Virus record (IMG/VR): IMGVR_UViG_3300010429_000303
Coordinates: 36,852-100,851 of that record
DNA length: 64,000 nucleotides
From: a virus
Taxonomy: Duplodnaviria > Caudoviricetes
Strand: one strand, 5' to 3'
Shown here: one piece after another, positions 14,605-46,119 of the stretch
How positions within the stretch are numbered: the stretch's first letter is position 1
How the letters are laid out: every line of letters begins with the position of its first letter
Made by a program: the position numbers and the translations under genes
The notes under the pieces: generated by a model
Databases searched by the model: none
Seen by the model: only the letters and a program-made list of their open reading frames with translations
What the model was told of the DNA's origin: nothing

Positions 14605-14613
14605 TCTGGACCT

Positions 14614-22839: not shown

Positions 22840-24006
22840 ATGTCATCGTATTCAACTCCCTTGGTAAAGATCTATAGAACTTTTGCGTTACAAACCTTAG
22901 CAAAAGAAGAACAACTGTATGCGTTTATCAGTAGAACTACACCATGGAATAATTCAGAATTCCTTCCTGGTTTTGCCCCTGAAGAACCCTCTTTAGATCA
23001 AAGATCCTTAGATGGGTACTTGGACCAGATTATCGCCCTTAAGAAGGTAGCAGCCTCTGATGTCTCTATTGCAATAAAACGTTATGATTGGTATTCTGGA
23101 CGAACTTATGATTCCTATGATTGTACTGATGCCAATATTCTGTTTAAACATAACTTCGAAGGTACTAATCCCTTCTATGTGCTTACCGACGAGTATAACG
23201 TTTATAAGTGTATAGACAATGTAGGGGGATCTGTTTCTACTGCAAAGCCTACCGGTCAGTTCGCTCAGGCTATAGAGCTGGAAGATGGATATGTCTGGAA
23301 GTTTATGTTTCATGTAGACGAAGCAGACAGGGCTAAGTTTCTTACCTCCACGCATATTCCAGTTCGACACAATACTGAACTTCTTTATGCTTCTGCCCAA
23401 AAGACGGTAAAGGATGCTGCTATTGCAGGACAGGTCGAACGAGTAGACGTTGTTTCTGGGGGGAGTGGGTATACCGGAACTTCAGAACTTGTATCATCTG
23501 GTGACGGGGCTGGATTTGCGGCTACTCCTGTGATTACCAATGGGGTAGTGACCGGGATTACTGTGACCAATAAAGGAACTGGGTATACCACGTTAACCGT
23601 GAATGTAACCAATACCAATTCTTCTTATGTACCAGCAACCTTTAAGGCTCAGATTTCACCTCAAGGGGGACATGGGTTTAATGCTGCTAATGAACTCGGT
23701 GGATTCTATACCATTATCTCGGTAGATCTAATTGGGTATCAAGACACTATCTTACCCGTTAATGTCTATTTCAGACAGTGTGGGTTAATTACCAATATTC
23801 AAGATATCAATTCAGGGTACTCCAATCAGACCTACTACTTCGGGCCAAAACATCCCCAGTACAATGACTCTTCAATTAGGTCTACCTTTCCCCAGAGAGT
23901 GCTTAAACCTGATATTGGAGAAATTCTGTATATTAAGAATCATGCCCCTATCCTAAGAAGTCTATACCAACTTGAACGGCTTAAATTTGTGGTAGAAACT
24001 CTATGA
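22840..24006 (+). CDS. gp8: gp8 baseplate wedge subunit
   Basis: [23 protein letters not shown]....ST.KPTG, DGY.WK.M, P.GGHG.NA..ELG and GEILYI.N..PI.R...Q.E motifs. Confidence 0.93.
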
Positions 24007-27000
24007 CTAAACTATCTTTTAATCGTGCTCCCTATTTTGATGATTATGATGCAGGAAAACATTACCACAAGATTCTGTTTAAGGAAGGAGTACCTCTTCA
24101 GGTCAGAGAACTCAATCAGCTTCAAACCATTCTGCAAGAACAGATTGCTCGATTTGGACGACATTTCTTTAAAGAAGGTTCCATAGTCTCTGGGTGTGAA
24201 AACAAGTTAAACTTTTCTTTGAAATCCTCAGACCTGGTAAACTCACCAGAAAACTTGTTGGTTTTAGCTAAGTTTGCTAAATCGTATGCCATAACGTTAT
24301 CTGGGGCGTTGGTCTATATTCCCTTTGTGATTTTACCTTCAGAGAATACTTGGAATCCAGGGGTACCCACCCTAGTCTTTGCCTCTATTTCCGGCCCTGA
24401 ATTGGTCCCGGGAGATGTTCTTTACCTGTATGATTATGACACTAAAATAACTTCAGACTCTATCTATATCACTACCTCTTCTTCAACTATTCAACAAGCT
24501 TCATCTATTTCATTTCAACCAGGAATCGTATTTTTTGATGGTTATTTTCTTTCTGTAGACAAACAAGCCATCATTGTTCATCCTTATACCTCGACTCCTA
24601 CTGTTTCTATAGGATATAGGTTAGTAGACTCTATTGTAACCTGGAAGGAGGATTTCTCCTTACTGGATAATGCTTCCCCTACAGAAATACAGTCATACAA
24701 TCAAGCTGCACCGGGGGCGGATAGATATAAGAAAGAGTTGTTTCTTACCGTAGTTCCCATTATTACTTCTGACTCTTATGCTGAACAAATCATTCAAGGA
24801 GAGTTCATAGAGTTTGTCAGAGTGATAAATGGAGAAATCACCAAAGATATCAATACCACAGTTTATGCTGAGTTTGAGAAGAATCTAGCTAGACGGACGT
24901 ATGATGAATCAGGAAACTTTACCGTTAAGCCCTTTAATATTTCTATTGTAGATCATATTGGTAAAAACCCAGAGCTATTCTCTATCGAGATATCTCCAGG
25001 AAAAGCCTATATCAGAGGTTATGAGTTTGAAACGAAGGGAAGAGTTTATGTCGATCTTCCCAAAACTTCAACTTCAATAACCAAAGAAACCTTTGCCCTT
25101 TCTACTTATTACGGATCGTATATCAAGTTAGATACTCTTTCAGGATTGATAGACGTTTCTAAGAATGATGTTATTGAATTACTGGATCAGCCCATTGGTG
25201 ATTTCCAAGACATTAGTGATACTTCTGAACGAGCAGATCATAGATTAGGAACTGCCCGCAGTCGATTTCTTCAGAAGGTAGGCAGTGATTTTTGGTTGTT
25301 CATATATACACCTACTTTCACTTCTGGGACCTTTGAAGATGTAAAATCAATATCTGCATTGTCCAACACTGGGTATGGAGATCTTAAAGAATCAAAAATT
25401 TTCGATCCTACCAATGATAAACTACTGTTTAAGTTTCCCGAACAGGTAAGTTCATTAGAATCATATTCTTACTTCGTTCAAAAGGTGTTTACTGGAGTTA
25501 GATTTAACTTTAATGAAGCTACTAATGCCTCTGAATTACTGTTAAAGTTGGATGGGACATTATCATTTGTAACCACTTCCAGCTACTTTATGGTATTCAG
25601 AAAGGATACCTTAGCGTATACTCCAGTTTCAACTGTTACCTCCTTGAATGAAGATAATACTCAAGTAAGAGTATCCTTAGTAGAAACCACAGATGTTCCT
25701 GCTGATGTTTTTTGTTTGGTAGCTGTTTCTGGGGGGACCGACAGAGTTTTATCGGTAAAAACTGAAACGTTTACTGAGGATTCGATTCCTATTGGGTGGA
25801 GCAAGACCTTAGACAACAGAGTACTAGGAACTTCCTTAGTTTCAGTTTCAGATGGAAGTGTTGAAGATAAAATTGATTTATTTGTGGTTGACAAAAATGA
25901 AACACCTTTTAGATATGGGCGAGAAACTATTAGGTTTTTAGGAAAAGAGATTATTGATGCTCCTGTAACGTTTACCTATACCTATCATGAACTATCTTCT
26001 TTTGGATTCTTTTCAGTTAGCTACTGGAGCCAGTTTAACTATGGCGATATAAGCATAGATAAGAGTACTGTCCAGAAAAGGACCAATACTTTAGATTTTA
26101 GGCCATTAGAAACTACAAATGAAACTTTTAGTGATGTCCATTGTATCTCACCTTTTAATGAATTTGAATGTAGTTATTCTTATAAAGTAGGCAGGATTGA
26201 TAAACTGACCTGTACTCCAGATAAAAAGTTTTCTTTGATTTCAGGGGTTCCTGCCCTGAATCCGTCAGTTCCAAAGGATAGGCCTGACTGGATGACCTTA
26301 TATACCATTATTTGTCCCCCTGGGGCAGAGACCCCAGAACTGGTAAAAACAGTATACCATGAGAATAAACGGTATACAATGCGTGATATAGGTAAGTTAG
26401 AACAAAGAATTAAAAATCTTGAATATTATACCTCCTTGACCTTATTGGAAAAGGATACCGCCTCTTTTGAGATTGTAGATGAACAAGGAAATAACAGATT
26501 TAAAAATGGCTTTTTGGTTGATAACTTTAAGAACTATAAATCATTAGATACTTCCAATCCAGACATTAAATGTTCATTTGATTTGAAAGAAGGCCATCTA
26601 AGACCTTCCTTCGCTCTTAATAACAGAAAAGCCCAACTTTTACCTTCTTCAAGATTGGTTTGTTCCTCTAATGGTTTAGTGACTTTACCTTATAGTGAAA
26701 CTGATTTTATTCAACAACCTTTAGCTTCAGATATTATCAACCTTCAACCCTATGAGGTGTTTACCTGGATTGGTACGTTGACCTTATCGCCTTCAGTGGA
26801 TGATTGGGTAGATACCAATATTTCCCCAGATGTCACTGTAAATCAGTTTGGTGAAAAGGATGTATGGGCAGAAATAGGGGCAAACGGATTTCAAACTGAA
26901 TGGAATTCATGGGAAACCCAGATTTCTAAAGCTGGAACAACTGATGCCTTTATAGGGGGGCAGAAAGGTGATTTTGCAAATCTAAGTTCAGAGACACAAC

Positions 27001-29825
27001 TTAAGCTTTGGAATCCAGATGTGGATTCATCAGTACCATCGGAGTGGATTTTTAACTACAATTCGTGGGTAGCAAATGGCTTTTCTGGGTGGTTTTCTCA
27101 GACATCTCCAGATGGCTATGTGAATGGAAAGCCTGCTCTACTACTACCCTTTAAGGTAGAGAATCAGAGTACAGTGTCTACTGGAACTCAACGTGCTTTT
27201 ACTGATTCTAAGATTATAACTAACTCATTGGGGGAGAATGTTACTGGGTATGAACTTTTGCCTTACATGCGTTCTCAGGTTATACGGTTCTCGGCTAAGG
27301 CATTAAAACCCAAGACAAGGTTATATGCTTTTTTTGACTCTAAGGATGTGACAGATTTTTGTTCCTCCAACGGTATAACTGGTTCATTGATAACTTCAGA
27401 GACCGGAACTATTGAAGGTCAATTTACTATCCCTGCCGGGAAATTTACTACCGGAACTCGAATCCTTGAACTTTCAGATTCTTCTTTGAATAGAGCGTAC
27501 GAAGTAACCACAAGATGTTCAGCTAAGTACACTGCTAAAGGTATTTCACAATCAAAAACTGAAACTTTCTTATCCACTAGAGAACCCCATATTGTAGATT
27601 CAGGAGTTTCTTCAGAGTCCACTGAGAAGATATACGCATGGGGAGGACTTGAATTCTTACCTTCTCCATCTCCATCTAATACTCCTACTCAAACTCCATC
27701 TAATACTCCATCTAATACTCCATCTCCATCTAATACTCCTTCGATCACACCAACACCAACCGGATCGAGTTCTAACACACCTACCCCTACTCCTACCCCT
27801 ACGCCATCTAATACTCCATCTAATACTCCATCTAATACTCCATCTAATACTCCATCTAATTCGCCATCAGTTTCATTTGATCTAATTATATCTGTTTTTA
27901 TCCCAAATGGTAACTTAAATCTAGTAAAAGACGGAAAGGTTAATATAGATTTAACTGGAAATAGGAATAACGAGTCTATTTCTATTCCTGTATCTATGGA
28001 TGATCTTAAAGTTAGTACTACGGCTTTTACCTTTATCAGTAATTTTATTGATGCCCTGGCACAATTTGGACAAAGAGTAGAATCATACAGTGTCTCTGGA
28101 GTAGGCTCATATAGTTTTAGTGATAGATCGGTATGGGTATCTCAGTTGGAAAAAGATCTCGCTGTTACCTTTCCTTCCTATGGATATTACATTTATTACT
28201 GGACCCATACCGAGTTTGTTCCTAGGCTTAAAGATTTCTTATGGGATAGATTCCAAAACTATACCTCCGAGACTTCCTACTACAGAACAACGTTACTTCC
28301 TCATTTTTTAGCCCTGTCTACGATTGGCGATATGAAGACTTATCTGAATAATGAACTTACCACAATCATAGACGCTTCTTTTAATGAGAGGATAGCTCTC
28401 TTGGTTCAGTGGTGTGCTTCTCAGAATATAACAGTTAATTCAACCGATGTAAGGAATATCATTGTAGGCCGGTTGTTGTTTGGTGGGGAATCGTTCTACA
28501 ACTCATTATTTAACCAGGAAAGTTACTGGCTATCCAGTAATCTTTCTGAATTTTTAGTTAAAGGAAGATGGACACTAAACTCTTCTGAATTGACAGTAAA
28601 ACTTAGCTATGATAATACAGTAAATGCATCGGACTTTAGTTTTTATCAAACTGGGGTGGTAGAAGATCCACCCCAACCATACCTCAACTTTTATGTCAGT
28701 AGAATTCAATCTGTCTATCAGAAAGTAACCACCTATTCTCAGGCACCAACGTTTGACTATACGTGGGTTTCTTCACAGTTCCCCATGGGTAACCTTACTG
28801 CTCTGGGTACCAATGTTTTTACTGCTCCTGGGTTTGCTGATATCTATCCTGAGGTGCGAAGAAACGATGATTCTCACTTCTTGCGTGCCCTTCTAACTAA
28901 GATGTTAGGTGCTTTACCGCCAGAATTAGATGTCTGGGTTACTTCAGAAAACATGGTAGAGATGCAAGAAAAGATTAAACCACATCTGCTTAGAGCTACA
29001 CAAGAGTTTATCAACAAGAAGTGTCCTACCTTTACTATCTCATTGACACCAAATACCTTAAACTATCTAAATCTTACACTACTTCTTCAGAGAGATCTAT
29101 ATGTCCACTTTGTTCCTATACGCAACACCTACTATGACCCAATTGCAGAAACCTTTGAAGTCAATGCAGATCAGTATCCTTCAGGACTCTTTATCACCGG
29201 GGCAGATGTGTACTTCAAGACTAAGTCGAACACTGTTCCGGTAAAGGTGGAGATTCGAGAAGTAGTTAATGGCTATCCTCATGCTAAGCAATGTTTGACC
29301 AAAGCCATTCTGGATCCGTCTGAGATTAAGATCTCTAACGATGCTAATACCCCCACCAGAGTTACCTTCGACAATCCGGTCTATGTCCTTCCTGGAGAGT
29401 TTGCTCTTTGTTTGATTGCTAACACCACAGAGTATACCGCCTATGTAGGTACCATTGGAGAGTATATGCTAGGGTCTACTTCTGAAAGAATCTCTAAGAA
29501 TCCTTATATTGGCACCTTCTTTAAGTCTATGAACTCAGTGACTTGGGTACCTCAACCAGAGACAGATCTTAAGTTTAATCTATACCGGGCGGTGTTTCCG
29601 ACAGGACAAGAAATTGAAGGATACTTCCAACCAGAACAAACGACAAATTCTCTTGAATTCAACGCTCTGTGTATCAATGGCTCGGTTATCACTCCGGGGA
29701 GAACAAAGGCATCTCAGGTAACCACAACACTTCAAAAAGTTTCTGGGGAAAATGACAGCGTTACCGTAGCTTTTAATGAGACTTCCGAATTGAACGGTAC
29801 ATTTGTAATTTCATCAATAGGTTAA
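24003..29825 (+). CDS. Giant virion structural protein, VrlC/DUF4815-like, paralog 1 (C-terminal domain encoded separately)
   Basis: [99 protein letters not shown] and DLKF motifs. Confidence 0.88.
27660..27869 (+). repeat. Mucin-like P/T/S linker with 12-bp tandem repeat (CCATCTAATACT = PSNT)
   Basis: [19 protein letters not shown]...[31 protein letters not shown]. Four full copies and one partial copy in tandem from about 27804. Confidence 0.95.
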
Positions 29826-29831
29826 GCTAAA

Positions 29832-30890
29832 ATGCCAATAAGTTCTTATAACCAAATTCCTACATCCATAAAGTTTCTCTATTTTTCTGGACCTAATGGA
29901 ATTAAAATACCTAACGAAACTACCAGAAAGATAGTGGTTGTTCCTGGAAACTATACCTGTCATTTTAGTTACTCAGGAAGTTTGAATCAAAATTATGTCT
30001 GGGTTAAGAAAATAGAAACCTTAGAAACTTCTTCCCCTACATGGGTCTTAAACCCCCAAGAAGATAAAATTGAAGTTGATTTTACTTCTGGAGTATCAAC
30101 ATGGGTAACTCTTGGACTTACTTCTCACATTGCAGAGTATGTAACTGGGTCGAAGAATTCTCCCCCTATTGTTTCTGATACTATTTTGTTTCAAGTGGAT
30201 CCTAAATTTCTGTTCGTTCCTGCATCTGCCCCAGTACCCTCAGCGTCAAATGAGTCGATTCCTTCCTTAATTTCTGGATTAAAGCTTCCAGTTATTCCAA
30301 TTATCTTTGGAACTCCTACCCCTACTCCTTCGATTAAACCTCAACTTCCATATAACCCGGTTGTCTCTACTTATACCTTTTCAACCACTTTAGATTCGGT
30401 ATCACCCATTTTAGATTCTCATCAACTCTCTTATACCACAGTTAAAAATATTATCAATGAGTACGCGGATGAAACAGTAATAGAATCTGAATCAGGCAGT
30501 TCTGGTGGAGTTACAGTTGCTAGGTATATTACCAAACCAGTAAAACTTCTTGAAGATAATTTAGCTGCTGGATTCTTTATTTCATTTGCTGCAAACATTC
30601 CAGAAGAAGCCTCTGTTTACCTATTCCATAAGATATTAAATACTGTTGAAGACCAGTCACTATCTACTTTTGAAAGTCAACCATGGATATATACTGGAAC
30701 TTCAGGAACTAGGAAATCGTTGGACAAAAAAGAATTTTTAGACTTTGAATTCTCGTTGGATTCTATAAGCTATCCAAGTAATACTTCAATTACCCAATTT
30801 GATATGTTTGCAATTAAGATTGTGATGACATCTTCTAATCCATCAAAGGTTCCTAAGATTAAAGACTTTAGGGTTATGGCTCACTCTTAA
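29832..30890 (+). CDS. C-terminal part of VrlC-like paralog 1 (same frame, after a single TAA)
   Basis: VSPILD...ARYITKPV.L...SSNPSKVPKIKDFRVMA matches the C-termini of paralogs 2 and 3. Confidence 0.85.
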   Translation: MPISSYNQIPTSIKFLYFSGPNGIKIPNETTRKIVVVPGNYTCHFSYSGSLNQNYVWVKKIETLETSSPTWVLNPQEDKIEVDFTSGVSTWVTLGLTSHIAEYVTGSKNSPPIVSDTILFQVDPKFLFVPASAPVPSASNESIPSLISGLKLPVIPIIFGTPTPTPSIKPQLPYNPVVSTYTFSTTLDSVSPILDSHQLSYTTVKNIINEYADETVIESESGSSGGVTVARYITKPVKLLEDNLAAGFFISFAANIPEEASVYLFHKILNTVEDQSLSTFESQPWIYTGTSGTRKSLDKKEFLDFEFSLDSISYPSNTSITQFDMFAIKIVMTSSNPSKVPKIKDFRVMAHS

Positions 30891-30901
30891 ACAGGTTTAC
30901 T

Positions 30902-33900: not shown

Positions 33901-36900
33901 TCCAAATGCCCCAACTAGACTTATATCATCATATCAGGATTGGGTGAATTCTGGATACACTGCTGGGTTTTCTCAGACAAGTCCGGATGGAACTGTTAAT
34001 GGTCAACCTGCACTCTATTTGGATTTTAAAGGGGAAATCACAGAATCTGGAAGAACTGGATCTCAATCTGCATTTGGTGAGTCTAGGATTCTTACCTCTT
34101 CCATAGGGGAATCTGTATCTAATGTAGGAATTCAGCCTTTTATTAGGGCTCAGAATATCAGGCTCAACGCAAAATACTTGAAACCTAATACCAATTTTTA
34201 CCTCTATTTTGATGATAAAGAAGTATCCAATTACTTTCAACAATTTACTACTGAGTCTTTAATACCTTCAGAAACACCTTCAAGAACTCCCCCAGCTACT
34301 CCTACCCAGACTCCTTCAAACACTCCTACAGTTACGCCACCTGCGACGCCTTCAAATTCACAAACCCCTTTAGCTACACCTACACCTTCAACTTCTTTAT
34401 CGAAAACAATTTATAGTACACCACTACCTACTCCTATTGCAACTTACCCTACTCCAATACTCAATTTTGAAAAAGTTTATGAAAATGGAGATGGTGGTCT
34501 TTATCCTGATGGAAGTTCTCGACGGGAAACAGCTGTTTCGTTTACTCTGTCATTGCCAACAGATTCCACTGGATCATTTAGATTCGGTCAAACTATTGAT
34601 ATGGTGTTAAAGTTAAAAGTAACTCCAACTACCAAATACTACGACTTAGGAAGGTTTAATTTACATTTTAAAGATGGTTCTGGTAATGAAATTTCAACAT
34701 ATCTAATTGATTCTTATTTTGATATACTAGATCCACCACAAATTTCTCAACAGAGGCAAGTCTCTGGAAAGGTTGATGACACCTTATATTATAAGATTGG
34801 GTTCTTAAAGCCAGTTTCAACAAATGTGAAGAAAGTAGAATTCTGGATAGTTTTCGATTATAATCTATTTACCTTTGAAGGTGCTTCTCTTTCAAAGTTT
34901 GTAGATACAGCCCCCCAATCTATAAAAACGGGATCATTTCCTACAATCCATTCTTCGTTATCCTTGAGTGATCCACCTTTACCTACCCCTTCAAGCTCAA
35001 GAACACCGTCACCAACTCCCTCTATTTCAACAACACCTCAGATATCTGTAAGCGTAACACCAACTCCCTCTATTTCAGAGTCACCTTCAATAACTCCAAC
35101 ACCTTCACCTACACCGTCACCAACTCCGACTCTAACGGTTACCAGTTCAAATAACCTATTGGCACAGACTAGTCCTTTATCTGATATAAGTTATAGTATG
35201 TCTGACAGTACTAAGTTTAGTGATGAGATCACATCCGATTATGAAGGTAATATTATAGGAGTATTGTACTTACCCGGGGGAACATTTACTACCGGAGTTC
35301 ATGATGTTATTATTAGAGACTCTAAACTTGATGATTCTGTAAATCTGTCTTCATTTGCGACAACACAATATACTGCATTTGGGTTGACTCAAACTAAACA
35401 AGAAACTATAATTTCTACAAGGGAGCCGGTTATCATTTCTAATCCGGTAACTGAACGAGGTACGGAGTATAAAATAGGGTGGAACTATGAGGATGTTGAT
35501 ATAGTTCCTACTCCCTCTGTCACTCCTTCTAGTACTTCAACCCCTACTCCTACCCCTTCTTGTTCAATCACCCCATCTACAACACCATCATTTTCAATGT
35601 CTCCATCTGTGTCGGGAGGTATTTTCTCAGTTACAAAACTTATAGAGGACGAATTTAATGTAGTCTTTAGAGTGTACGTTTCTACAGATTTATCGTTTTC
35701 TATTAGGATATATTCACAAGATAGTTGGAATTACCACATGTTTACTCCCCATCAGTTTGGTACTCTATCACATTATCTTACTCATAACACTTCGAATGAA
35801 ACTAATCCTTTTGATTATGTTATAAACGCAGTGACAGATTATCCAGCTTATATACGCCAACAAAATACCATAGTTCATTATATCACTGTACAGCATAAGG
35901 AGTATAAAAATCTTAATTATCCAGGACCTATAGTCTTTACAAATATACAAAATCAACAAAACTATAGCTTTTCTGTACCACTTGCAAAACTTCCTAAAGA
36001 TTTTATCATATTTAACTGGATTGATAATGAAACCATCAGATGTGCTATATCAAGTGATTCACAACTTCCGTATTTAGAAATCTCTGGAGTCCTTACAAAC
36101 GATGATACTGAATTGCTAGGTTTTATAAATGACGGTGATATGGTTAAAACAGACTTTTCATCATTAACGTATACCCCTATTACATTTATGAATGGTAAAA
36201 TATGTAATAGTAACTCCCCACCTTTAAGTTTTGAACCCAATGGAATTTTTACCTTTTCAGGTACAGAAAAAATATATTCATCCACCATGTTCAAACATAA
36301 ATGGATGACATTAAAAGTAATTCCAGGATCTCATGTTCAACGTAGGCTAATAAAGAAAGGGATAAAGTCAGTTTCGATTAGATTTAAGTTTAGATATGAA
36401 TATACACAAACGTATGTGATTTCTGATTCACAAACTAAAGTACTATTTGATGATTCAATCCCTGGGGAATTAAGAATATATAACAGCCAGTTTAGAGATA
36501 CTAATATAAATCCTAAATTTTATAATCTCCGAAAATGGTGGAATGGAGTTTCTGCAGTCGATACGCTAAGTGGTATTTTTGGAGATACAGCCGTTCTTTG
36601 TAGGTGGTCATCCTCACAGGATCAAACAAAATTTGCCTTTTATAATAAAGAATATGTGAGTCGCGATACTGCATATAATAATCAAGGCAAATACCTATTA
36701 TGGATTTACGGATACAATAACGAATATTTACCCAATGGGTCTATACCTAACCCATATACTCATTTAGGACTATCATATGGAGTTAATCCAACAAAAGTTT
36801 CATACCAGACATTACCACTTGGTGGAGTAGAGGTTCTTAGAATTCGTCCTGATATCCAAGATTTTTTTGCTAAATCCGAGAATACAGGATTTCAATTACC

Positions 36901-38317
36901 AATGCAATGGGAAAACTATCATGGGGTATTGTCAAATGTACTCACCTTTAATCCTTTAGTTATTGGATCTAATAATCAATCAGTAATAAAACCTATAGAT
37001 CCACTTGCAGAATCTTTCTTTGTAGATGAAAAAGAGTATCCAGAAGGGGTGTTTGTGTCCTCAATCGATGTCTACTTTAAGGAGAAATCTACATCGTCCC
37101 CTGTAGATGTTCAGATAAGACCTAATATCAATGGCTATCCTTCATCTACAGAATATCTCCCATTTTCAGATGTTATCCTTTCTCCAGATCAAATACAAGT
37201 ATCAGAAGATGCCTCTGTTGCAACTCGATTTACCTTTAGAGCTCCAGTGTATCTTAAACCTGGTGACTATTCCTTTATGGTTAGAGCAAAGGATACAAAG
37301 GTTAAAGCTTGGGTGGCTAAGCTAGGAGAATTTGTCTTAGGAAGCACAGATACTAGAATTACTTCGAATGCCTATATAGGTACTTTGTTTAAATCAGCAA
37401 ACTCTTCTACCTGGGTTGCAGAAGGAGAGACTGATCTTAAGTTTAGAATTAACCGTTGTTCTTTTACAACAACAGCAGTAAATGTTATTCTCGAAAATGC
37501 CCCCTTTGTGGGAACTGGAAACCTACTCCAAGATAGGAACTTCTCGGCGTTAACCACTCAGATTGCCACTATCATTCCAGCAAAAACTTCAATAGAGGAC
37601 ACAAAGGTAGATCTTCTTTCTTCTTCAAATACGGTAACGACCAAGTCTATAAATATCAATGAAACTATTGAGTTAGACGAGTTATACCATCTTGAAGATG
37701 TTAGAGATCAAACACCAAGGTCACTTGGTTTTTCTCTTCCTGATGGAACCTATATGAGAAGTGCATTGATAGATCCTTCAGTATATTTCACCCCATCAAT
37801 GAGTGTAAATATATCATTTACTTCCGAAAAGGAAACAGTATCTCCGGTCATAGATCTTCAGAAGTTATCTATGACCACCGTTGAAAATATTATCAACAAT
37901 CCTGAAGATCTTTCAGGAGAACTTGAGTCTGGTTCTGGGCCCTCTCTGTTTTGTTACATCACTAAACCCGTAAAATTAAGATCGGACACTCCAGCTAATA
38001 AACTTCTGGTAAACTTTACTGGACAGATATATCCCTCTGATGATAATAGAGTTTTAGCTTACTATAGAATTTATAATTCATTAGGGGATCCCAACCATAA
38101 AATTGCTCAGAAAAAATGGACTTTGTTAGGAACAAAATCATCAAGTGGGACTCGTTCTTGGGTAGACTATAGTGTAGAGACTGACCTACTTTCCTATGAT
38201 GGGGACGAAACAATAGAAGATTTTGATTACTTCCAAATTAAGTTAGTGGGGTTAAGTAGTAACTCTGCTAAATTCCCTAAAATAAAAGATTTTAGAACTA
38301 TTGCACTCACGGCATAA
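30902..38317 (+). CDS. Giant virion structural protein, VrlC/DUF4815-like, paralog 2
   Basis: Same conserved motifs as paralog 1, two inserted domains and three P/T/S linkers. Ends FPKIKDFRTIALTA. Confidence 0.88.
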   Translation: MKQTSYVFPDAPYFDDYDPLKLYYKLLFKPKHLIQARELSQLQTILQEQIAKFGSHIFKNGSIVLGCESKINNSCFILSIESSDTLSDEQVLALEGQYLSSDNRIGQVILARKTNTTNILELVINDFTETPIDIGDTCFVYDFTNKISTSSGISFRVQARTSSCVVKFNSGILYFDGYFISLDDQKIVLSSSTSSFSGSIGFQINKVIKEFNGQDVLTIDPVLTSRDIIFHESGQDLSGQTVIDDFIEFIRVKDGRILKNISVPIYSELEKVLARRTFDQAGNFTVTPFACKVLESADTTKFKLEISPGKAYVLGYEFDSPFSQTIEIDKALDFNQKNDFQLSTYFGSYVILSNFTGFFDVQKCEKVLFFDELLGDLDFGPGGNHQDHIIGSARVRHVDFQEDQLALYLFEIQAAQNKSISDTIKSISTESVVKDNPGFGDLVEFKIFDLDQSTLLYELPEKEIRSIRDEDDKVKNDYYIQKSFFCSLASSPEPGSPPVPVFGYLNTTIGEQFLVSPDDITLVDRATGTYYHPSSVEALNAEATEIQFGIEEELQEVDVYAKVRVVNQPEIPLVTETSTVSLSIGSFSANQEYSLPETDIIGITQCSFNGTDILSQVRIEAKETIDAVYNSVLVYSGSLFSSVPGTLSVTYSYYKGNRDNGYRSIDSYPADSSLKTFKNNSKVIPIGKCIDFRVRIKEGMVSGAYIPVPYETFQCSYSYHLGRIDKLIATSSKNFEVVKGISKLNPLPPDDKPHGMTLYTITIPAKTDNVKDVKLKFVENRRYTMRDIGGLDKRIKNLEYYTSLSLLEKDTKDMEILDEQGNNRFKNGFLIDNFKNFRSVNYPEGTVKCSFNTELGELRPTFNIVNTKLLFNPQKSTCKQSGDLLTLPYSEVTFIEQLKASSSMNLQPFEVFNYEGKMTIIPEVDEWVDTSTKPAIIANQFGENDIWEEIGDSAFTAQWGSWESRISQIPSTQDVSQIDPSSFSDLTVEPVKRLWNPSVDPNAPTRLISSYQDWVNSGYTAGFSQTSPDGTVNGQPALYLDFKGEITESGRTGSQSAFGESRILTSSIGESVSNVGIQPFIRAQNIRLNAKYLKPNTNFYLYFDDKEVSNYFQQFTTESLIPSETPSRTPPATPTQTPSNTPTVTPPATPSNSQTPLATPTPSTSLSKTIYSTPLPTPIATYPTPILNFEKVYENGDGGLYPDGSSRRETAVSFTLSLPTDSTGSFRFGQTIDMVLKLKVTPTTKYYDLGRFNLHFKDGSGNEISTYLIDSYFDILDPPQISQQRQVSGKVDDTLYYKIGFLKPVSTNVKKVEFWIVFDYNLFTFEGASLSKFVDTAPQSIKTGSFPTIHSSLSLSDPPLPTPSSSRTPSPTPSISTTPQISVSVTPTPSISESPSITPTPSPTPSPTPTLTVTSSNNLLAQTSPLSDISYSMSDSTKFSDEITSDYEGNIIGVLYLPGGTFTTGVHDVIIRDSKLDDSVNLSSFATTQYTAFGLTQTKQETIISTREPVIISNPVTERGTEYKIGWNYEDVDIVPTPSVTPSSTSTPTPTPSCSITPSTTPSFSMSPSVSGGIFSVTKLIEDEFNVVFRVYVSTDLSFSIRIYSQDSWNYHMFTPHQFGTLSHYLTHNTSNETNPFDYVINAVTDYPAYIRQQNTIVHYITVQHKEYKNLNYPGPIVFTNIQNQQNYSFSVPLAKLPKDFIIFNWIDNETIRCAISSDSQLPYLEISGVLTNDDTELLGFINDGDMVKTDFSSLTYTPITFMNGKICNSNSPPLSFEPNGIFTFSGTEKIYSSTMFKHKWMTLKVIPGSHVQRRLIKKGIKSVSIRFKFRYEYTQTYVISDSQTKVLFDDSIPGELRIYNSQFRDTNINPKFYNLRKWWNGVSAVDTLSGIFGDTAVLCRWSSSQDQTKFAFYNKEYVSRDTAYNNQGKYLLWIYGYNNEYLPNGSIPNPYTHLGLSYGVNPTKVSYQTLPLGGVEVLRIRPDIQDFFAKSENTGFQLPMQWENYHGVLSNVLTFNPLVIGSNNQSVIKPIDPLAESFFVDEKEYPEGVFVSSIDVYFKEKSTSSPVDVQIRPNINGYPSSTEYLPFSDVILSPDQIQVSEDASVATRFTFRAPVYLKPGDYSFMVRAKDTKVKAWVAKLGEFVLGSTDTRITSNAYIGTLFKSANSSTWVAEGETDLKFRINRCSFTTTAVNVILENAPFVGTGNLLQDRNFSALTTQIATIIPAKTSIEDTKVDLLSSSNTVTTKSININETIELDELYHLEDVRDQTPRSLGFSLPDGTYMRSALIDPSVYFTPSMSVNISFTSEKETVSPVIDLQKLSMTTVENIINNPEDLSGELESGSGPSLFCYITKPVKLRSDTPANKLLVNFTGQIYPSDDNRVLAYYRIYNSLGDPNHKIAQKKWTLLGTKSSSGTRSWVDYSVETDLLSYDGDETIEDFDYFQIKLVGLSSNSAKFPKIKDFRTIALTA
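34265..35612 (+). repeat. Three P/T/S mucin-like linkers (approx. 34265-34456, 34973-35150, 35507-35612)
   Basis: [30 protein letters not shown]; PLPTPSSSRTPSPTPS...PTPSPTPSPTPT; PTPSVTPSSTSTPTPTPS. Confidence 0.9.
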
Positions 38318-38321
38318 TTGA

Positions 38322-41300: not shown

Positions 41301-44300
41301 CTAGGAACCACAGTTAGGGATGTTGGTTTCTCTCCATATATTAGGGCTAAGTCCATCCAGTTTACTGCAAAAGGGTTAAAACCCAACACTAAGTTTTTTG
41401 TGACGTTTTCTGACGTAGATGTATCAAACCTGTGTTCTGGTGGGTTGATGTCATCAAGTAATGGGTCACTATCAGGAGTGTTTTCTTTACCTGCAGGACG
41501 ATTTAAGAATGGACAACATCAATTTAAACTGATAGACACCTTATCCCAGAACTCTAGCCAGGTTACCTCGTTTGCTATCGCTGAATATACCGCCAATGGG
41601 ATGCAATCTACAGTTCAAGAAACCTTTATCTCCACTCGAGAACCACAAACTACCACGGAATCAGTAAGCTTTACTGAAGTATCTGCCGTTTTTGATTCGA
41701 CTGTACTAACTGTACAGAACTCTATAACTATCAATCAGTTTGGAACTGGATTAGTAGAGTTATATGATTCGGCTGGATCTACCCCTATTGTCGTAGGTAA
41801 AGATGGTGAATCTGTTTACTATACTGCGGAATCTGGAAAGAATTACATACTAAGGATAACCGAAACTGTTGGTAGAGTTTCCGAAGTTTCTGGATTAGAC
41901 TATTATGATAGCACGCAAACTAAAGGGGTTCGGCAAGGGTCATTCCTATTTGATGGGGATAAGGTAATCACGGCTCGGTTCGCTGATGAATCAGAAAAAA
42001 TCTTAGTTCAGTTTGCTTTACTTGACTTCAATACTTCAATTTCAGATTCTGAGCTCTCCCCTTACTATAAACTTACTCTAAACAGATTTCCTGACTATGA
42101 AGATGAAATAACCTATCTTCAATACAGAAAACCTACAGCCAATGTAAGTTATCCAGAAGAGATTGTGTTCCCACTTTCAAATAATAGAATCAATACTGAT
42201 GTATTTGAAATAACCGGCGGGGACTCTGTAACCGTTGAATTCATCACTACAGGAACCACAGGAACCTGGGCAAATGATTCGGTTACTTGGATAGATTATC
42301 AAACCATAAAATGGGATAAGTACGGAAGTACCGTTATTAGCAAGACGTTTACCCAGACAGACATATCTGCTGTTGTGGATAAGAATGCTATCGAGTTGAT
42401 GTACCTGTTTAATGGTAGAGCTTCATTTCTTACTGTTAGATCAAAGACAAACGGTAGCAGTTTTTTGTGTGGTGTAAACTGTTACTTAGATGAGAACAAC
42501 ACAACGACTCCTCTACATACATCACAGATAAATCCAAAATTTTCAAATGTCTATGAGGTAGGAAAGATCTTTAATGAATTTGAGAATAGTCCATCTACTG
42601 GCTATCTGATTGTATCTCCAAATCTAGGTAACTTCGATGTAACTATAAGTGTTTCACCCTACTTCTTGAACGCTCAGAATGTATTTATTCCACTACCCAT
42701 AGAGGATCTGGATTCTGGATATGGCATCGATATATCAGATGTTCCTCTGGCTACAGGATCTAGAAACATATTCTTAGATTTTATGTTGGATGGTGTTATC
42801 AATGTTACCCCTACCCCTCCCACTCCCCCTCCCACTCCCACTCCCACTCCCCCTACAACTACTTTAATCTCTCTACTGGATGACCCCCCTATAACAAACA
42901 GTCTAGATGATTACCCAATAGATCCACTCAGAACTTGTACCTTTACCTTAAAACTACCTCTACATTTTGTTTCCGAAGATATTGATGTTTCTGGAATTCT
43001 CTTTATCAATGATATTGATGCTGCTACTATTATAAAAGATGGAACCTTTACCTATCAATTGGACCCAGTAGCTAGAAAAGCATCTCTTAGAGTCATGAAG
43101 TTTGATTGTCCATTTAACACCAGAATCACCATAGATTTACGGATGAATTCAGCTAAGCCTTATAACCTAGCGTTAGATCATACCTTAACTGATCAGCCCT
43201 TCATGCGAGATACAGTAAAGGAATACCGATATCCTAACTTTTCAAGAAAAGGAACTTTCTTAGTAAACCTGAGGAACCAAATAGTAACCTTAAACATGCA
43301 CCAGGTTATTAGAACAACCTGTATTCCGGGCCAGGCAAAAAGAACTGGTCTTGTACAAGTTCCTATGGTTATTCAGTACGCATCTGCGTTAAATCAGACA
43401 ATGCTGATCAATGGAGTTAATCTAGAAGACATTTTTGCTAATCCAGAAAAGTCTCCATTTGCGTTTAGAACAATGGAAATGTTTGTAGGTAATAGAAACT
43501 ATGTAGCAGATTTTAGGGCAATGAGTAGCTATGTCTATCCTGGCCCAAGTTCAAAAACAGAAGTGTTTGAGAATACTCCTATTGGTTCAGGAACATCCAC
43601 AGGGGGATTTTTCCCACATTTCAAACAAATTTTCATCATCTGGTATGTTCCTTATAATTCACTGTTTACTGTTTCTTCACCATTTGTTTCTTCGGAACCT
43701 AAGTATATAATTTCCCCACTTGGCAAAGTGCAAGGTCCTTATACTTATGGATACCATGAATATACTAGAGTTCCTGGGGATTATTCACAAAACTATCAGC
43801 AATTTTCTTTTAAGTTCTTCCGAAATAATGACCAGAAAGGATTTTCTGGTATCTACAGTAAACAAGAAACTACCAGAACATCCACGTATCTTATTTCTAA
43901 AGATATGGGGTTATTGTTTGAATTTTGTCCCCTCAAAGAAGCTGAAGGACAAGATTTCAGTAACTTCGAGCCAGACGCTAGTGATGGTACAAGATCTACT
44001 GACAAATATAAAGTAATGTTTTTTCCGGGTGCTGCATACATTAATAAACGTAATGCGGAAAGATTCATGTTCTTTCCTGACTATTATGAAAAAGGAAGGT
44101 ATACCGTTGTTAGTGAAAACGACGATCGTAGTCGGTTTATTTCTACTTACTATGGCAGTGGGTTAAACCCTTGTCTAATGAATAATGTAGAGGCACTAAA
44201 ATATGTTTACCAAAGTATAACTGCGTATAATCTGGGAGGGGTAGATACCTTTTCTTATTATAAAGTAATAAAGATCCTAGATTCAAGCTTCACCCAAGCT

Positions 44301-45890
44301 ACAAAATACTACATCAAAAGATATACTATAAATTTAAACTCTGCTAAAAATAAAGATTTTATTGAATCTACAACGATTCCAGGAGACAACTATACCAGTT
44401 TTATTCCGACAAACGGATTTGTCCCTATTACCACAACCTCCGTTGAATATAATAATATGTCGTTGCTTAACAGAACAAAACTGTTAGATGCCATTCGAAC
44501 ATCTCCTGCAGTAATTCAAAGTACACCCTCAACCTCTTCAAGTACAAATTTAGCAGGATTCACTGAAATTAGTCCATCATATACTCCGTCAACAACTACA
44601 ACTTCAACAGCCCCCAAAGTGTGTCTAACGGACCCATTAGCCCAATCGTTCTTTATTGATGGGGAAACCCACCCTGAAGGGGTTGTTCTATCCTCTATTG
44701 ATCTGTTCTTTAGGAAGAAGGATAGTTCTCACTCAGTTATGTTAGAACTCAGGTCTTCTGTCAATGGCTATCCCTCTTCCAAAGAAGTTATCCCATTCTC
44801 TAGATCCTATAAGGAAGCTGAGGATATAGAGGTTTCTGAAGATGCTTCAGTTCCAACCAATTTCAAATTTGAGGGGTTAGTTTACCTTAAACCCGGGGAA
44901 TACCACTTTGTTGTAATTTCAAAATCACTAAACTATGATGTCTGGGTCGGTCGGCTAGGGGAGTTTATTCTAGGAGATGAAACAAAAGGACGGGTTGATA
45001 AGAATCCGTATGCAGGAGTTTTGTTTAAGTCCTCTAACAATACTGCTTGGCTACCAGACTCAGAGGCAGACTTTACCTTTAGAATCAATAGATGTAAATT
45101 TACTACTGGAGAGACTGTTCTTGAATTCTCCTCTAACACCTACCAGTCTAAGGGCAGAACTGCTCAACCTCTCTCAATCACAACCATTAAGCCTGCCTTT
45201 TCGAGTATCATTCCAGAAGGGTCTAGAATATCTAAGTCCTTAGTTACCCTTACCAATAAAGATACCTTGGTACCCAAAGAGTTCTCAATTCCTCTAAATG
45301 GGAACTACGATTTAGATGAAGTATATACCATATCAGATACCAAATTTGATTCTACGAACAGAATACTTCATAAGATTGGTCTCACCACTACTAAGGATCA
45401 TATATCTCCCTTGATTGACTGGCAGAGGTCATCGTATGTGCTAGTTAACAATCTCATAAATAGTATAGGAACTGATGATACCTCTGAACTTCAGCCGTAT
45501 GGGGGTTTAGCAAAAGCCCGGTACATCACCAAACCTATGCGGTTGAACTTGGAGATTCCGGCCAATAACCTTCGGTTGGAGTTTGCGGCCAACTGTCCAG
45601 GATCTACCTCCGTTAAGGTCTTCTACCGGGTCTTTAATACCCTCCATGACAGTAATGGGCTAACCATTGTCGATAAGAATTGGATCTTCCTGGGAACAGC
45701 ATCAAAGATTCCTAAGGATAAAGATACCTTTATTGACTTTGCCTTTGAGAGTCCTAATCCAATTCCGTACCCGGGAATTGCTAATCTAACAGAATTTGAT
45801 GTCTGCCAGGTGAAGTTGGTGATGGATTCGTCCAACCCAGCCTTTGTTCCTAGAGTTAAAGACTTTAGACTTATCGCCCTATCCAGTTGA
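38322..45890 (+). CDS. Giant virion structural protein, VrlC/DUF4815-like, paralog 3
   Basis: Same conserved motifs ([46 protein letters not shown]) with a ~1000-aa unique central insert. Confidence 0.88.
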   Translation: MNRQIAFSAPYNPYDDSFFVNQNQHKVLLKPGHNVDHSHLNLIQSVLQEQVARFGQHVFVNGSFVTGGQYTQVRDAVVLDIVDLRGNELNTLKRVGVGNWILEDNGQTIAILSVDTEKENSPEVHKLLISKDTPLEIELIPDKHYTIYNVANPNTKLNIKKASDFQYIVFDEGVLFVNGYFISIPKQYAIVRYASSSVGFLLEQNIISYFDDISLLDNSSKDAGSFEGADRLQLQLELASFSIPKLKTNYNLARGSFFEFLKLDNWEVIKDLTKTQYSKNLSQMIERRTYDKSGNYTVTPFKINIKNDTDLEFKIEISPGKAYIFGYEFDSISTKSLPLVKDSGLLAEQSNTLAVPTLPYLVCPTLDKFIPIQTDVPVKFYDSDGEQIGTGFVGYIKQVSDKVRLYLSSFTLNSGKSLYDTTTVRDFNEDTLASIELIVVASNPTRLVTLDQDEKLPSILRIEDLLVQKVFEDVTNNLITFDSNETPPTDVSNYLTFQSNGMVGIIDDISIEDKVVSLISAKSIDKVIVSGVKLTVTHSVASESEITIQVPFSTTINLPYKIKKVLSATNNQETITSLFTVSERVTEVSLLGSSLTYTGIDTRSGNLLLTLLVTTYNTSTLRIDNSILDLRQSTYFTFPLIEPNSPLKLYYDVKQARYDKLVLTKDGTFELIQGTPHPYKPVAPKDRIDAMTLYTLYIPGSPKSPEDVGVKYIENKRYTMRDIGKLEKRIENLEYYNLLSLLEKETSDQTYKDENGLDRFKNGFMVDNFKTYKGVDFKSPDCLFSLDLQQGHLRPSFEMENVGVETSFSNIPLLSCPYTETILLDQNQASSTLNLNPYEVFTWQGQVTLYPPLDYWVDTTVKPDITLDHKGEFDVYATFKEKGFTSEWGVWDSKILDFTSSDLAGVSSQDFAGSDLPTEKRLWIPDIDPSATPELIAKYNLWVSSGFVTGFSITTPDGYVDGKPAILLDFKGQKVQKSADLTHFGDSAVITSSLGTTVRDVGFSPYIRAKSIQFTAKGLKPNTKFFVTFSDVDVSNLCSGGLMSSSNGSLSGVFSLPAGRFKNGQHQFKLIDTLSQNSSQVTSFAIAEYTANGMQSTVQETFISTREPQTTTESVSFTEVSAVFDSTVLTVQNSITINQFGTGLVELYDSAGSTPIVVGKDGESVYYTAESGKNYILRITETVGRVSEVSGLDYYDSTQTKGVRQGSFLFDGDKVITARFADESEKILVQFALLDFNTSISDSELSPYYKLTLNRFPDYEDEITYLQYRKPTANVSYPEEIVFPLSNNRINTDVFEITGGDSVTVEFITTGTTGTWANDSVTWIDYQTIKWDKYGSTVISKTFTQTDISAVVDKNAIELMYLFNGRASFLTVRSKTNGSSFLCGVNCYLDENNTTTPLHTSQINPKFSNVYEVGKIFNEFENSPSTGYLIVSPNLGNFDVTISVSPYFLNAQNVFIPLPIEDLDSGYGIDISDVPLATGSRNIFLDFMLDGVINVTPTPPTPPPTPTPTPPTTTLISLLDDPPITNSLDDYPIDPLRTCTFTLKLPLHFVSEDIDVSGILFINDIDAATIIKDGTFTYQLDPVARKASLRVMKFDCPFNTRITIDLRMNSAKPYNLALDHTLTDQPFMRDTVKEYRYPNFSRKGTFLVNLRNQIVTLNMHQVIRTTCIPGQAKRTGLVQVPMVIQYASALNQTMLINGVNLEDIFANPEKSPFAFRTMEMFVGNRNYVADFRAMSSYVYPGPSSKTEVFENTPIGSGTSTGGFFPHFKQIFIIWYVPYNSLFTVSSPFVSSEPKYIISPLGKVQGPYTYGYHEYTRVPGDYSQNYQQFSFKFFRNNDQKGFSGIYSKQETTRTSTYLISKDMGLLFEFCPLKEAEGQDFSNFEPDASDGTRSTDKYKVMFFPGAAYINKRNAERFMFFPDYYEKGRYTVVSENDDRSRFISTYYGSGLNPCLMNNVEALKYVYQSITAYNLGGVDTFSYYKVIKILDSSFTQATKYYIKRYTINLNSAKNKDFIESTTIPGDNYTSFIPTNGFVPITTTSVEYNNMSLLNRTKLLDAIRTSPAVIQSTPSTSSSTNLAGFTEISPSYTPSTTTTSTAPKVCLTDPLAQSFFIDGETHPEGVVLSSIDLFFRKKDSSHSVMLELRSSVNGYPSSKEVIPFSRSYKEAEDIEVSEDASVPTNFKFEGLVYLKPGEYHFVVISKSLNYDVWVGRLGEFILGDETKGRVDKNPYAGVLFKSSNNTAWLPDSEADFTFRINRCKFTTGETVLEFSSNTYQSKGRTAQPLSITTIKPAFSSIIPEGSRISKSLVTLTNKDTLVPKEFSIPLNGNYDLDEVYTISDTKFDSTNRILHKIGLTTTKDHISPLIDWQRSSYVLVNNLINSIGTDDTSELQPYGGLAKARYITKPMRLNLEIPANNLRLEFAANCPGSTSVKVFYRVFNTLHDSNGLTIVDKNWIFLGTASKIPKDKDTFIDFAFESPNPIPYPGIANLTEFDVCQVKLVMDSSNPAFVPRVKDFRLIALSS
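42807..42863 (+). repeat. Pro/Thr linker
   Basis: TPTPPTPPPTPTPTPPTTT. A second S/T-rich linker lies at about 44521-44615. Confidence 0.9.
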
Positions 45891-45897
45891 GGAACTT

Positions 45898-46119
45898 ATG
45901 GATCTTTCTAAATTTGTTCAAACTGATGTCCCTTATCTACTTCGAGATAAAACTAATATGGCTATTATAAATAATGATGTTCGTAAGTATGAACTGTACA
46001 AGAAAAGTAAAGCCAATCAAAAGAAAAAAGATGAAGAACTATCTGAGTTAAAGACTCAGCTTAAGGAGATGAAGGATATGCTGGCTCAAGTCATCCAACA
46101 GAAAGAGTCTACTCCATGA
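45898..46119 (+). CDS. Small coiled-coil protein of the kind following VrlC-like genes in T4-like phages
   Basis: GAGGAA RBS before the ATG at 45898; L.RD..N.AIIN.D...Y..Y followed by heptads. Confidence 0.7.
   Translation: MDLSKFVQTDVPYLLRDKTNMAIINNDVRKYELYKKSKANQKKKDEELSELKTQLKEMKDMLAQVIQQKESTP

Follow-up and report, generated by a model that had tools for sequence, protein, structure and literature searches.

How did one phage come to encode the same baseplate protein three times in succession, each copy with a different large insert at the same position, and what might these inserts do? The question is raised by a 64,000-nucleotide (nt) stretch of viral DNA, hereafter the window, which corresponds to positions 36,852-100,851 of the record IMGVR_UViG_3300010429_000303. 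This record is a 100.8-kb metagenomic contig from an uncultured virus, with an IMG/VR completeness estimate of 56%. The list of open reading frames (ORFs) shows four plus-strand ORFs packed together, referred to here as VrlC1, VrlC1b, VrlC2 and VrlC3 (Table 1). The start of VrlC1 overlaps the stop of an upstream gp8-like gene (ATGA), and the following gaps are 6 nt (VrlC1-VrlC1b), 11 nt (VrlC1b-VrlC2) and 4 nt (VrlC2-VrlC3). An initial annotation, made from the letters alone, described three giant baseplate paralogs with unrelated passenger domains in a fixed slot, hung on mucin-like linkers. We propose, with a probability of about 60%, that these genes are ancient tandem paralogs of the VrlC tripod protein, that they carry fast-changing cargo at a hinge, and that this cargo likely contacts host surface structures, which would provide several specificities in each virion.

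Three collinear members of the VrlC/DUF4815 family

VrlC1, VrlC2 and VrlC3 matched the Pfam family DUF4815 (PF16075) with scores well above the cut-off of 30 bits (Table 1), and all nine PF16075 matches in the 100.8-kb record were located inside the three giant ORFs. The three proteins also matched PHROGs 358 and 877, and their homologs in cultured phages are annotated as VrlC or VriC. The sole solved relative is the 1152-amino acid (aa) protein of PDB 9EUF and related entries, which was recovered by phmmer with VrlC1 (E 7.7e-53) and with VrlC3. Five ordered collinear blocks span residues 3-975 of this protein, gp119 of Staphylococcus phage 812. At the level of sequence, these matches establish that the three ORFs are VrlC/DUF4815 paralogs, belonging to the family of the 812 tripod protein.

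In phage 812, each baseplate has 12 copies of gp119, a homotrimeric tripod that occupies two non-equivalent sites and docks on loops of the arm scaffold protein (PMC13433997). Its domains are a CBM-like base and fin, a leg resembling the lectin domain of Cwp84, an anchor and a hook, and tail contraction shifts the fin by 56 Å and the leg by 88 Å (PMC13433997). In the literature, VrlC is treated as part of the baseplate in T4-like cyanophages and pelagiphages, encoded just before a variable host-recognition cluster (PMC7029224, PMC4621102). The triplet is preceded by gp25-like, gp6-like, 535-aa wedge and gp8-like genes, and fibre genes are found downstream. The window fits this baseplate picture: its wedge, gp8-like and tripod genes follow one another as the arm scaffold, the gp8-like arm segment gp118 and the tripod do in 812. 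The assignment of these genes to the baseplate in the initial annotation is thus borne out by family membership, by homology to the 812 tripod and by the upstream genes. By homology to 812, the three proteins would be located on the baseplate periphery.

The paralogs are collinear, with 33-38% identity across the first ~1130 aa and 32-39% identity past a DP(I/L)AxxF motif. The STREP motif starts at nt 27573, 35414 and 41631 in VrlC1, VrlC2 and VrlC3, respectively, and the corresponding DPIAETF, DPLAESF and DPLAQSF motifs start at nt 29136, 36998 and 44631, exactly as first reported. The two motifs are separated by 516, 523 and 995 residues (estimated initially at about 520, 530 and 1000 codons). 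BLAST comparisons among the three STREP-DP intervals revealed no similarity, in agreement with the earlier claim of unrelated inserts at one site; this lack of relationship is to be read at the sequence level only.

Stretches rich in proline, threonine and serine (P/T/S) were also found where they had been described: at aa 1218-1291 in VrlC1, at aa 1122-1178, 1351-1419 and 1532-1571 in VrlC2, and at aa 1491-1520 in VrlC3. These five stretches have a length of 30-74 aa each and a P/T/S content of 74% overall, and they are encoded by 12-nt tandem repeats.

The triplet is conserved in a small clade

Four independent metagenomic assemblies from other samples carry parts or all of the same arrangement. 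Contig L009 contains the gp8-like gene, VrlC1, VrlC1b, VrlC2 and VrlC3 in the same order as the window; L010 runs from the end of VrlC1 through VrlC1b and VrlC2 into the start of VrlC3; L091 covers the end of VrlC2 and the whole of VrlC3; and L092 extends from VrlC1 through VrlC1b into the start of VrlC2. The best matches between the window and the four contigs paired VrlC1 with VrlC1, VrlC2 with VrlC2 and VrlC3 with VrlC3, at 39-70% identity. In a maximum-likelihood tree of the conserved core, from which the VrlC2 of the window was left out because of its nested insert (see below), the eight clade sequences formed one group (SH-like approximate likelihood ratio test, SH-aLRT, 100) apart from 50 single-copy VrlCs. 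Within this group, VrlC1, VrlC2 and VrlC3 each grouped by paralog (SH-aLRT 90, 93 and 100, respectively). The tree supports a single ancestral triplication that gave rise to VrlC1, VrlC2 and VrlC3 in this small clade. Megablast of the locus against cultured phages gave no match, and single-protein scans of IMG/VR and the JGI metagenomes with VrlC1 yielded no close relative.

Outside the clade, all 131 VrlC loci examined were single-copy (80 IMG/VR loci and 51 metagenome loci among the matches listed); those listed by the alignment-based metagenome scan were all distant. The cultured phages provided 1689 records with 1703 matching places, and the T4-like ones carry one copy. According to the initial annotation, T4-like relatives usually have one such gene, and this holds for the wider group (cultured T4-like phages and the 131 loci) but not for the immediate clade, in which all five contigs have the triplet arrangement. 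It had also named triplication as the norm of the clade as an outcome that would count against its proposal. Triplication is indeed the norm in the immediate clade (5/5 contigs, with 1:1 orthology), whereas the wider family is single-copy.

It could be argued that the triplet or its inserts are assembly artefacts or decaying gene copies, since the record is a metagenomic contig, 56% complete, and P/T/S repeats are hard to assemble. We consider this highly improbable: the four independent assemblies display identical gene order and slot architecture, the three giant ORFs are uninterrupted over 1940-2522 codons, and the paralogs, at 33-38% identity, are too diverged to be collapsed or duplicated reads.

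VrlC1 stops early, a point that the initial annotation did not raise, and its last domain is found in the separate ORF VrlC1b. By BLAST, residues ~171-352 of VrlC1b align with the last ~180 aa of VrlC2 and VrlC3, and its front part is a variable region of 170 aa with a TPTPTPS linker. The separate VrlC1b gene is also present in L009, L010 and L092. VrlC1 and VrlC1b share one reading frame in the window (29823-29834; TAA plus 6 nt) and in L010 (1344-1349), but not in L009 (8195-8221, with a 25-nt gap) or L092 (5429-5435). The difference in frame indicates that the split between VrlC1 and VrlC1b is a conserved gene fission. Stop-codon readthrough joining the two products was considered and is ruled out by the same difference. 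Among clade members, the N-terminal part of VrlC1b ranges in length from 170 aa to ~400 aa and includes a P/T/S linker.

The three paralogous genes invariably occur together and in the same order, with gaps of 4-11 nt and one overlapping start, and all three are retained across the clade. Given that the 812 tripod is a trimer, these features might indicate one 1:1:1 heterotrimeric tripod rather than three homotrimers at separate docking sites, an arrangement that would be compatible with the reading proposed here. However, the solved 812 tripod is a homotrimer occupying two non-equivalent sites, the N-terminal halves of the three window proteins are merely 28-38% identical, and VrlC1 lacks its last domain in cis. 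A heterotrimer therefore seems unlikely to us.

The inserts occupy a hinge preceding the leg domain

In 812 gp119, the STREP-side block extends to about residue 783 and the DPLAQSF block starts at residue 790, the motifs being ~10 residues apart. We measured the corresponding gap in homologs with hidden Markov models (HMMs) of the two flanking blocks. This gap was of 5-59 residues in 70/74 IMG/VR homologs and of 109-523 residues in the remaining 4/74. Among 121 database proteins (the best matches to VrlC1 plus the three window paralogs), it was shorter than 100 residues in 88 and of 143-1368 residues in 33. Long P/T/S stretches were found in the slot of every clade member, as against only 1 of the 88 slot-empty homologs.

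The C-terminal half of an insert-free homolog, L028, was modelled with AlphaFold from a 66-row alignment that included the post-slot regions of the window proteins. The model had a predicted local distance difference test (pLDDT) value of 85.8, and the junction (residues 132-152) was the only internal segment with a pLDDT below 50. Its best structural matches were the 812 tripod chains (Foldseek 9euf_0, E 2.7e-21; VIA Z 19-21), with a VIA Z of 19.1 and a root-mean-square deviation (rmsd) of 3.5 Å over 351 aligned residues in one comparison. In the same model, the domain beginning at the DP motif matched the lectin-like domain of Cwp84 (Z 12.5, rmsd 2.9 Å, 133 aligned), the very comparison by which the leg domain of 812 was defined (PMC13433997). 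Since the DP-motif domain corresponds to the Cwp84-like leg and the junction has low pLDDT, the slot is a flexible connection just before the leg domain. The fixed insertion slot put forward in the initial annotation can thus be specified further: the 812 structure, the gaps in IMG/VR homologs and the L028 model together point to a genuine insertion point, common to the whole family, at a flexible hinge between two domains.

Slot contents are replaced between orthologs

The contents of the slot differ from one ortholog to the next. In a comparison of VrlC1 from the window and from L092 in 50-aa steps, identity was 52-92% up to and into the P/T/S linker, fell to the noise level (8-25%) across the cargo, and returned to 58-84% from YDPIAETF onwards. 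The breakpoint on the left falls within the repeat linker, that on the right at the DP motif. The slot has 355 aa in L092 vs 514 aa in the window, and the globular parts have ~220 vs 418 aa. The L092 linker has the same length and place as the window linker, but different repeats. The VrlC2 slots, of 521 aa (window), 457 aa (L009) and 195 aa (L010), are without similarity to each other.

In VrlC3, a module of ~163 aa directly after STREP is conserved among orthologs, and it therefore belongs to the scaffold of this paralog rather than to the variable cargo. An alignment of VrlC3 orthologs showed a P/T/S linker after this module, and later content that differs in every genome; the slot content of the window VrlC3 had no similarity to that of the L009 or L091 VrlC3. 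The L091 VrlC3 (P0009, L091 4055-12904) has five separate P/T/S linkers in its slot, suggestive of a bead-like string of several domains. The alignments demonstrate that cargo has been replaced between orthologs even at ~70% scaffold identity, as the slot hypervariability predicted at the outset would require.

VrlC2 has an additional insert (aa 1119-1442), the linker-domain-linker unit noticed in the initial annotation. It is located inside the beta-sandwich preceding the slot, between the FDxxxV strand and the TDxxG...GxFxIPxG hairpin, and at this site no more than a few residues are present in VrlC1, VrlC3 and the VrlC2 orthologs of L009 and L010. The main cargo of VrlC2 (35615-36994) had been described as AT-rich by eye, and a GC profile bore this out: at 32.3% GC, it is the lowest among all 1380-nt windows of the 100.8-kb record (mean 39.5%, standard deviation 2.8).

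The term passenger domains, used in the initial annotation, implies acquisition from elsewhere, but the searches recovered neither a donor nor a relative for any insert. Searches with tblastn of all cargo segments against their own 100.8-kb record and all the fetched loci revealed no shared domain. The inserts may instead have diverged rapidly in place. Targeting of the cargo by a diversity-generating retroelement (DGR) was also considered and rejected: no RVT_1 was found in the record (56% complete), there were no long direct repeat pairs with the cargo, and the replacement of whole domains is not the DGR pattern.

Proposed model and the role of the cargo

We propose that a triplication in the ancestor of the clade gave rise to VrlC1, VrlC2 and VrlC3, and that the last domain of VrlC1 became a gene of its own. 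In each paralog, STREP is followed by a short conserved stretch (the 163-aa module in VrlC3), a P/T/S tether, one or two globular domains and the leg beginning with DP(I/L)AxxF. The scaffold evolves slowly, in contrast to a quick turnover of tether repeats and cargo. The cargo would be fixed rigidly at the N-terminal edge of the leg and connected to the rest of the tripod by a tether of 40-74 residues. On attachment, the leg might swing out as in 812, carrying the cargo with it, while the tether provides slack and reach. The cargo would most likely contact host surface glycans or proteins, and its rapid turnover would then reflect host-range pressure. Three paralogs with different cargoes would imply several specificities in one virion.

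Several observations weigh against this proposal. The hinge model was built on L028, a homolog that is just 30-38% identical to the window proteins, for which it is indirect evidence, and the ~100-residue beta-sandwich preceding the slot could not be named with certainty. The VrlC1 slot of L009 (gene at L009 2376-8195; slot at aa 1228-1606) consists almost wholly of ~380 aa of P/T/S repeats, indicating that a globular cargo is not obligatory there. The cargo segments yielded nothing credible in Pfam (E <= 1), PHROGs and NCBIfam (E <= 0.1) or PDB sequences (E <= 1), and the ESM Atlas returned no usable match for the VrlC1 cargo or VrlC3 cargo 2. Word-indexed protein searches limited to the VrlC1 and VrlC3 slots recovered self-matches only, and an exhaustive HMMER search with a 913-aa VrlC2 segment against 1.84 billion representatives recovered only a conserved 70-aa block and low-complexity linkers. 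A single-sequence AlphaFold prediction for the VrlC1 cargo gave a mostly helical, low-confidence model (pLDDT 33.7). No insert thus has a detectable homolog or a predicted fold, and a binding role is argued from position and analogy only.

Some of these observations would be expected if the hinge accepted any sequence and its contents, P/T/S repeats plus fast-drifting segments, were tolerated filler. They would then bind no particular ligand and serve only as spacers, or shield the baseplate like a brush. The ORFan nature of all cargo segments, the record-low GC content of the VrlC2 cargo, the L009 slot with little other than P/T/S repeats and the lack of a confident fold for the VrlC1 cargo are all consistent with this possibility. 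However, the cargo segments are long open frames of 172-540 aa that are not of low complexity, and their content of hydrophobic (36-40%) and aromatic (12-15%) residues equals that of the scaffold. Moreover, every clade member has kept large slot contents in all three paralogs, and the failure of AlphaFold is to be expected from single-sequence input. We therefore regard the filler explanation as a minority possibility.

Baseplate-borne enzymes are common in phages, and one or more of the cargo domains might be enzymes, such as depolymerases or esterases acting on host surface polymers, rather than binding modules. The mostly helical model of the VrlC1 cargo, as opposed to the all-beta scaffold, could be taken to point in this direction, but that model has a pLDDT of 33.7, and permissive searches of Pfam, NCBIfam, PHROGs and PDB sequences matched no enzyme family. 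An enzymatic cargo consequently appears improbable. We thus continue to favor host-contacting cargo on ancient tripod paralogs.

Possible glycosylation of the linkers

The window encodes a GT60-like glycosyltransferase (Table 1), whose homologs are confined to 4 of the 50,697 cultured phage records, all of them Xanthomonas or Stenotrophomonas jumbo phages. Interspersed with the baseplate and fibre genes, in the regions 12811-15903 (minus strand) and 53855-56449 (plus strand), are genes for the GT60-like transferase, an HtrL/YibB-like protein, a sulfotransferase and a GT2 domain protein. We infer that the GT60-like transferase is a candidate modifier of the P/T/S linkers, and O-glycosylation of these linkers is plausible. 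Hydroxyproline-linked glycosylation was discarded, since no prolyl 4-hydroxylase (P4H; PF13640) was found in the record, which covers 56% of the genome.

A more elaborate version of the model would combine a multi-specific baseplate made of three tripod paralogs (three homotrimers or one heterotrimer) with ORFan cassettes that are exchanged or newly arising, and with mucin-like tethers that the phage itself O-glycosylates by means of the GT60-like transferase. We regard this combination as doubtful. If it were true, cassette heads on phage-glycosylated tethers would amount to a virion-borne, phage-made mucin display system.

Genomic context

The features discussed here are listed in Table 1.

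Table 1. Features of the tripod locus and of related genes in the window
Feature	Position (nt)	Strand	Evidence and remarks
GT60-like glycosyltransferase (PF11397)	14614..15903	-	PF11397 E 3.2e-65; phrog_24687
Baseplate wedge protein, 535 aa, between gp6 and the gp8-like gene	21217..22824	+	PF23786 Baseplate_wedge at N-terminus; PHROG baseplate wedge matches
gp8-like baseplate wedge / arm-segment homolog	22840..24006	+	T4 gp8 chains 1n7z E 2.9e-7; 9f4a E 2.4e-11; phrog_438
VrlC1, tripod-family paralog, 1940 aa	24003..29825	+	PF16075 214.4 bits; phrog_358, phrog_877; scaffold aa 1-1195 and 1710-1940; ends after leg region
VrlC1 P/T/S linker, 74 aa	27654..27875	+	PSNT-type 12-nt tandem repeats
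VrlC1 cargo, 418 aa, ORFan	27876..29129	+	Globular composition; unrelated ~220-aa segment in L092
VrlC1b, 352 aa, detached last domain of VrlC1	29832..30890	+	phrog_358 positions 1899-2053; BLAST to C-termini of VrlC2/VrlC3
VrlC2, tripod-family paralog, 2471 aa	30902..38317	+	PF16075 166.4 bits; orthologs in L009, L010, L091, L092 at 45-58% identity
VrlC2 nested extra insert, aa 1119-1442	34256..35227	+	Linker 34265-34435; 172-aa cargo 34436-34951; linker 34952-35158
VrlC2 main slot content	35495..36994	+	P/T/S linker 35495-35614; 460-aa ORFan cargo 35615-36994
VrlC3, tripod-family paralog, 2522 aa	38322..45890	+	PF16075 158.5 bits; 9euf E 6.9e-42; orthologs in L009, L010, L091
VrlC3-specific module, ~163 aa, directly after STREP	41646..42134	+	phmmer L009 VrlC3 5e-11, L091 VrlC3 7e-7
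VrlC3 variable content	42135..44627	+	Cargo 1, 219 aa, 42135-42791; TP linker 42792-42881; cargo 2, 540 aa, 42882-44501; S/T-rich linker 44502-44627

The gp6 protein of the window is only ~30% identical to the gp6 of HTVC008M and of cyanophages, and the phage is a divergent uncultured T4-like myophage. The 535-aa wedge protein, which gave no match in the PDB sequence search, is, by its position, a candidate counterpart of the 812 arm scaffold on which the tripods dock. For the gp8-like protein, the chain designated 'baseplate wedge subunit' in PDB 9f4a/9f4b scored above T4 gp8. A T4 late-promoter-like sequence, TATAAATA, is present at 45966-45973, 76 nt past the VrlC3 stop and before the fibre cluster. 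No such sequence was found between the gp8-like gene and the three VrlC genes, and the total of three in the window is not above chance.

Significance and comparison with known systems

That VrlC proteins form a family, belong to the baseplate and vary in length was already known. What is new is the conserved set of three paralogs, the placement of the insertion point at the pre-leg hinge, the clade-wide mucin-like tethers and the full replacement of ORFan cargo between orthologs. Few baseplate proteins of large myophages, the dominant marine cyanophages and pelagiphages included, are as widespread and abundant as the VrlC/tripod proteins, and only a version infecting Gram-positive bacteria has a solved structure. 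The pre-leg hinge is a natural engineering site that accepts from 200 to more than 1300 residues, and one clade has fixed three paralogs that all use it. The locus therefore offers a concrete place to seek host-range determinants in uncultured marine phages, and a natural example of ORFan domain turnover within a conserved machine. Together with the rare GT60-like transferase, the mucin-like repeats provide a candidate, testable case of a phage directing the glycosylation of its own virion.

An analogous case of duplication and diversification may be found in phage T4. Leiman and colleagues reportedly proposed in 2006 that gp10, gp11 and gp12 share one ancestor. These are related peripheral trimers that follow gp8 and form the host-contacting rim; they are not known to have a sequence or fold relationship to VrlC, and the comparison is one of analogy only.

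Large inserts at the identical junction are also present in other marine VrlC lineages, both in P0024-P0051, with a shared insert of ~350 aa, and in P0066/P0070 (~1350 aa). In these other lineages with an occupied hinge, the inserts form conserved families, mostly lack P/T/S tethers, and the genes are not triplicated. The ~350-residue family (P0010, P0019, P0024-P0026, P0032, P0042, P0044, P0051 and relatives) is 27-47% identical among its members, with conserved Cys and Gly motifs, and has no Pfam annotation; a profile of the slot insert of this lineage did not match the window inserts. The hinge inserts of P0066, P0070 and P0009, the last being the clade VrlC3 described above, reach 1160-1370 residues.

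The single-copy VrlCs of T4-like cyanomyophages and pelagimyophages, such as the 'VrlC protein' of HTVC008M (PMC7029224, PMC4621102), belong to the same family and often have 1500-3000 aa. Unlike those of the window, their hinge is usually empty, their extra length is often located elsewhere, and long P/T/S linkers are almost absent.

The closest structural comparison is with 812 gp119 (9EUF, 9EUI, 9EUJ; PMC13433997) and its counterpart in Listeria phage A511, which have DUF4815 in common with the window proteins. The gp119 and window proteins have in common the domain on the STREP side and a lectin-like leg that starts at the DPLAQSF motif, and the fold of the C-terminal half, as predicted for the homolog L028, is that of gp119. 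In both phages, the tripod gene comes after the gene for the gp8-like arm segment. As for the LysM-like hook, a whole-protein Pfam scan (E <= 0.01) listed DUF4815 alone, although the 812 hook is merely LysM-like and a diverged hook could escape detection. The host of 812 is Gram-positive, whereas that of the window phage is probably a Gram-negative or marine bacterium. Finally, gp119 is the product of one gene, with 1152 aa and ~10 residues at the hinge, whereas the window encodes three paralogs of 1940-2522 aa, with 514-993 aa at the hinge and P/T/S tethers.

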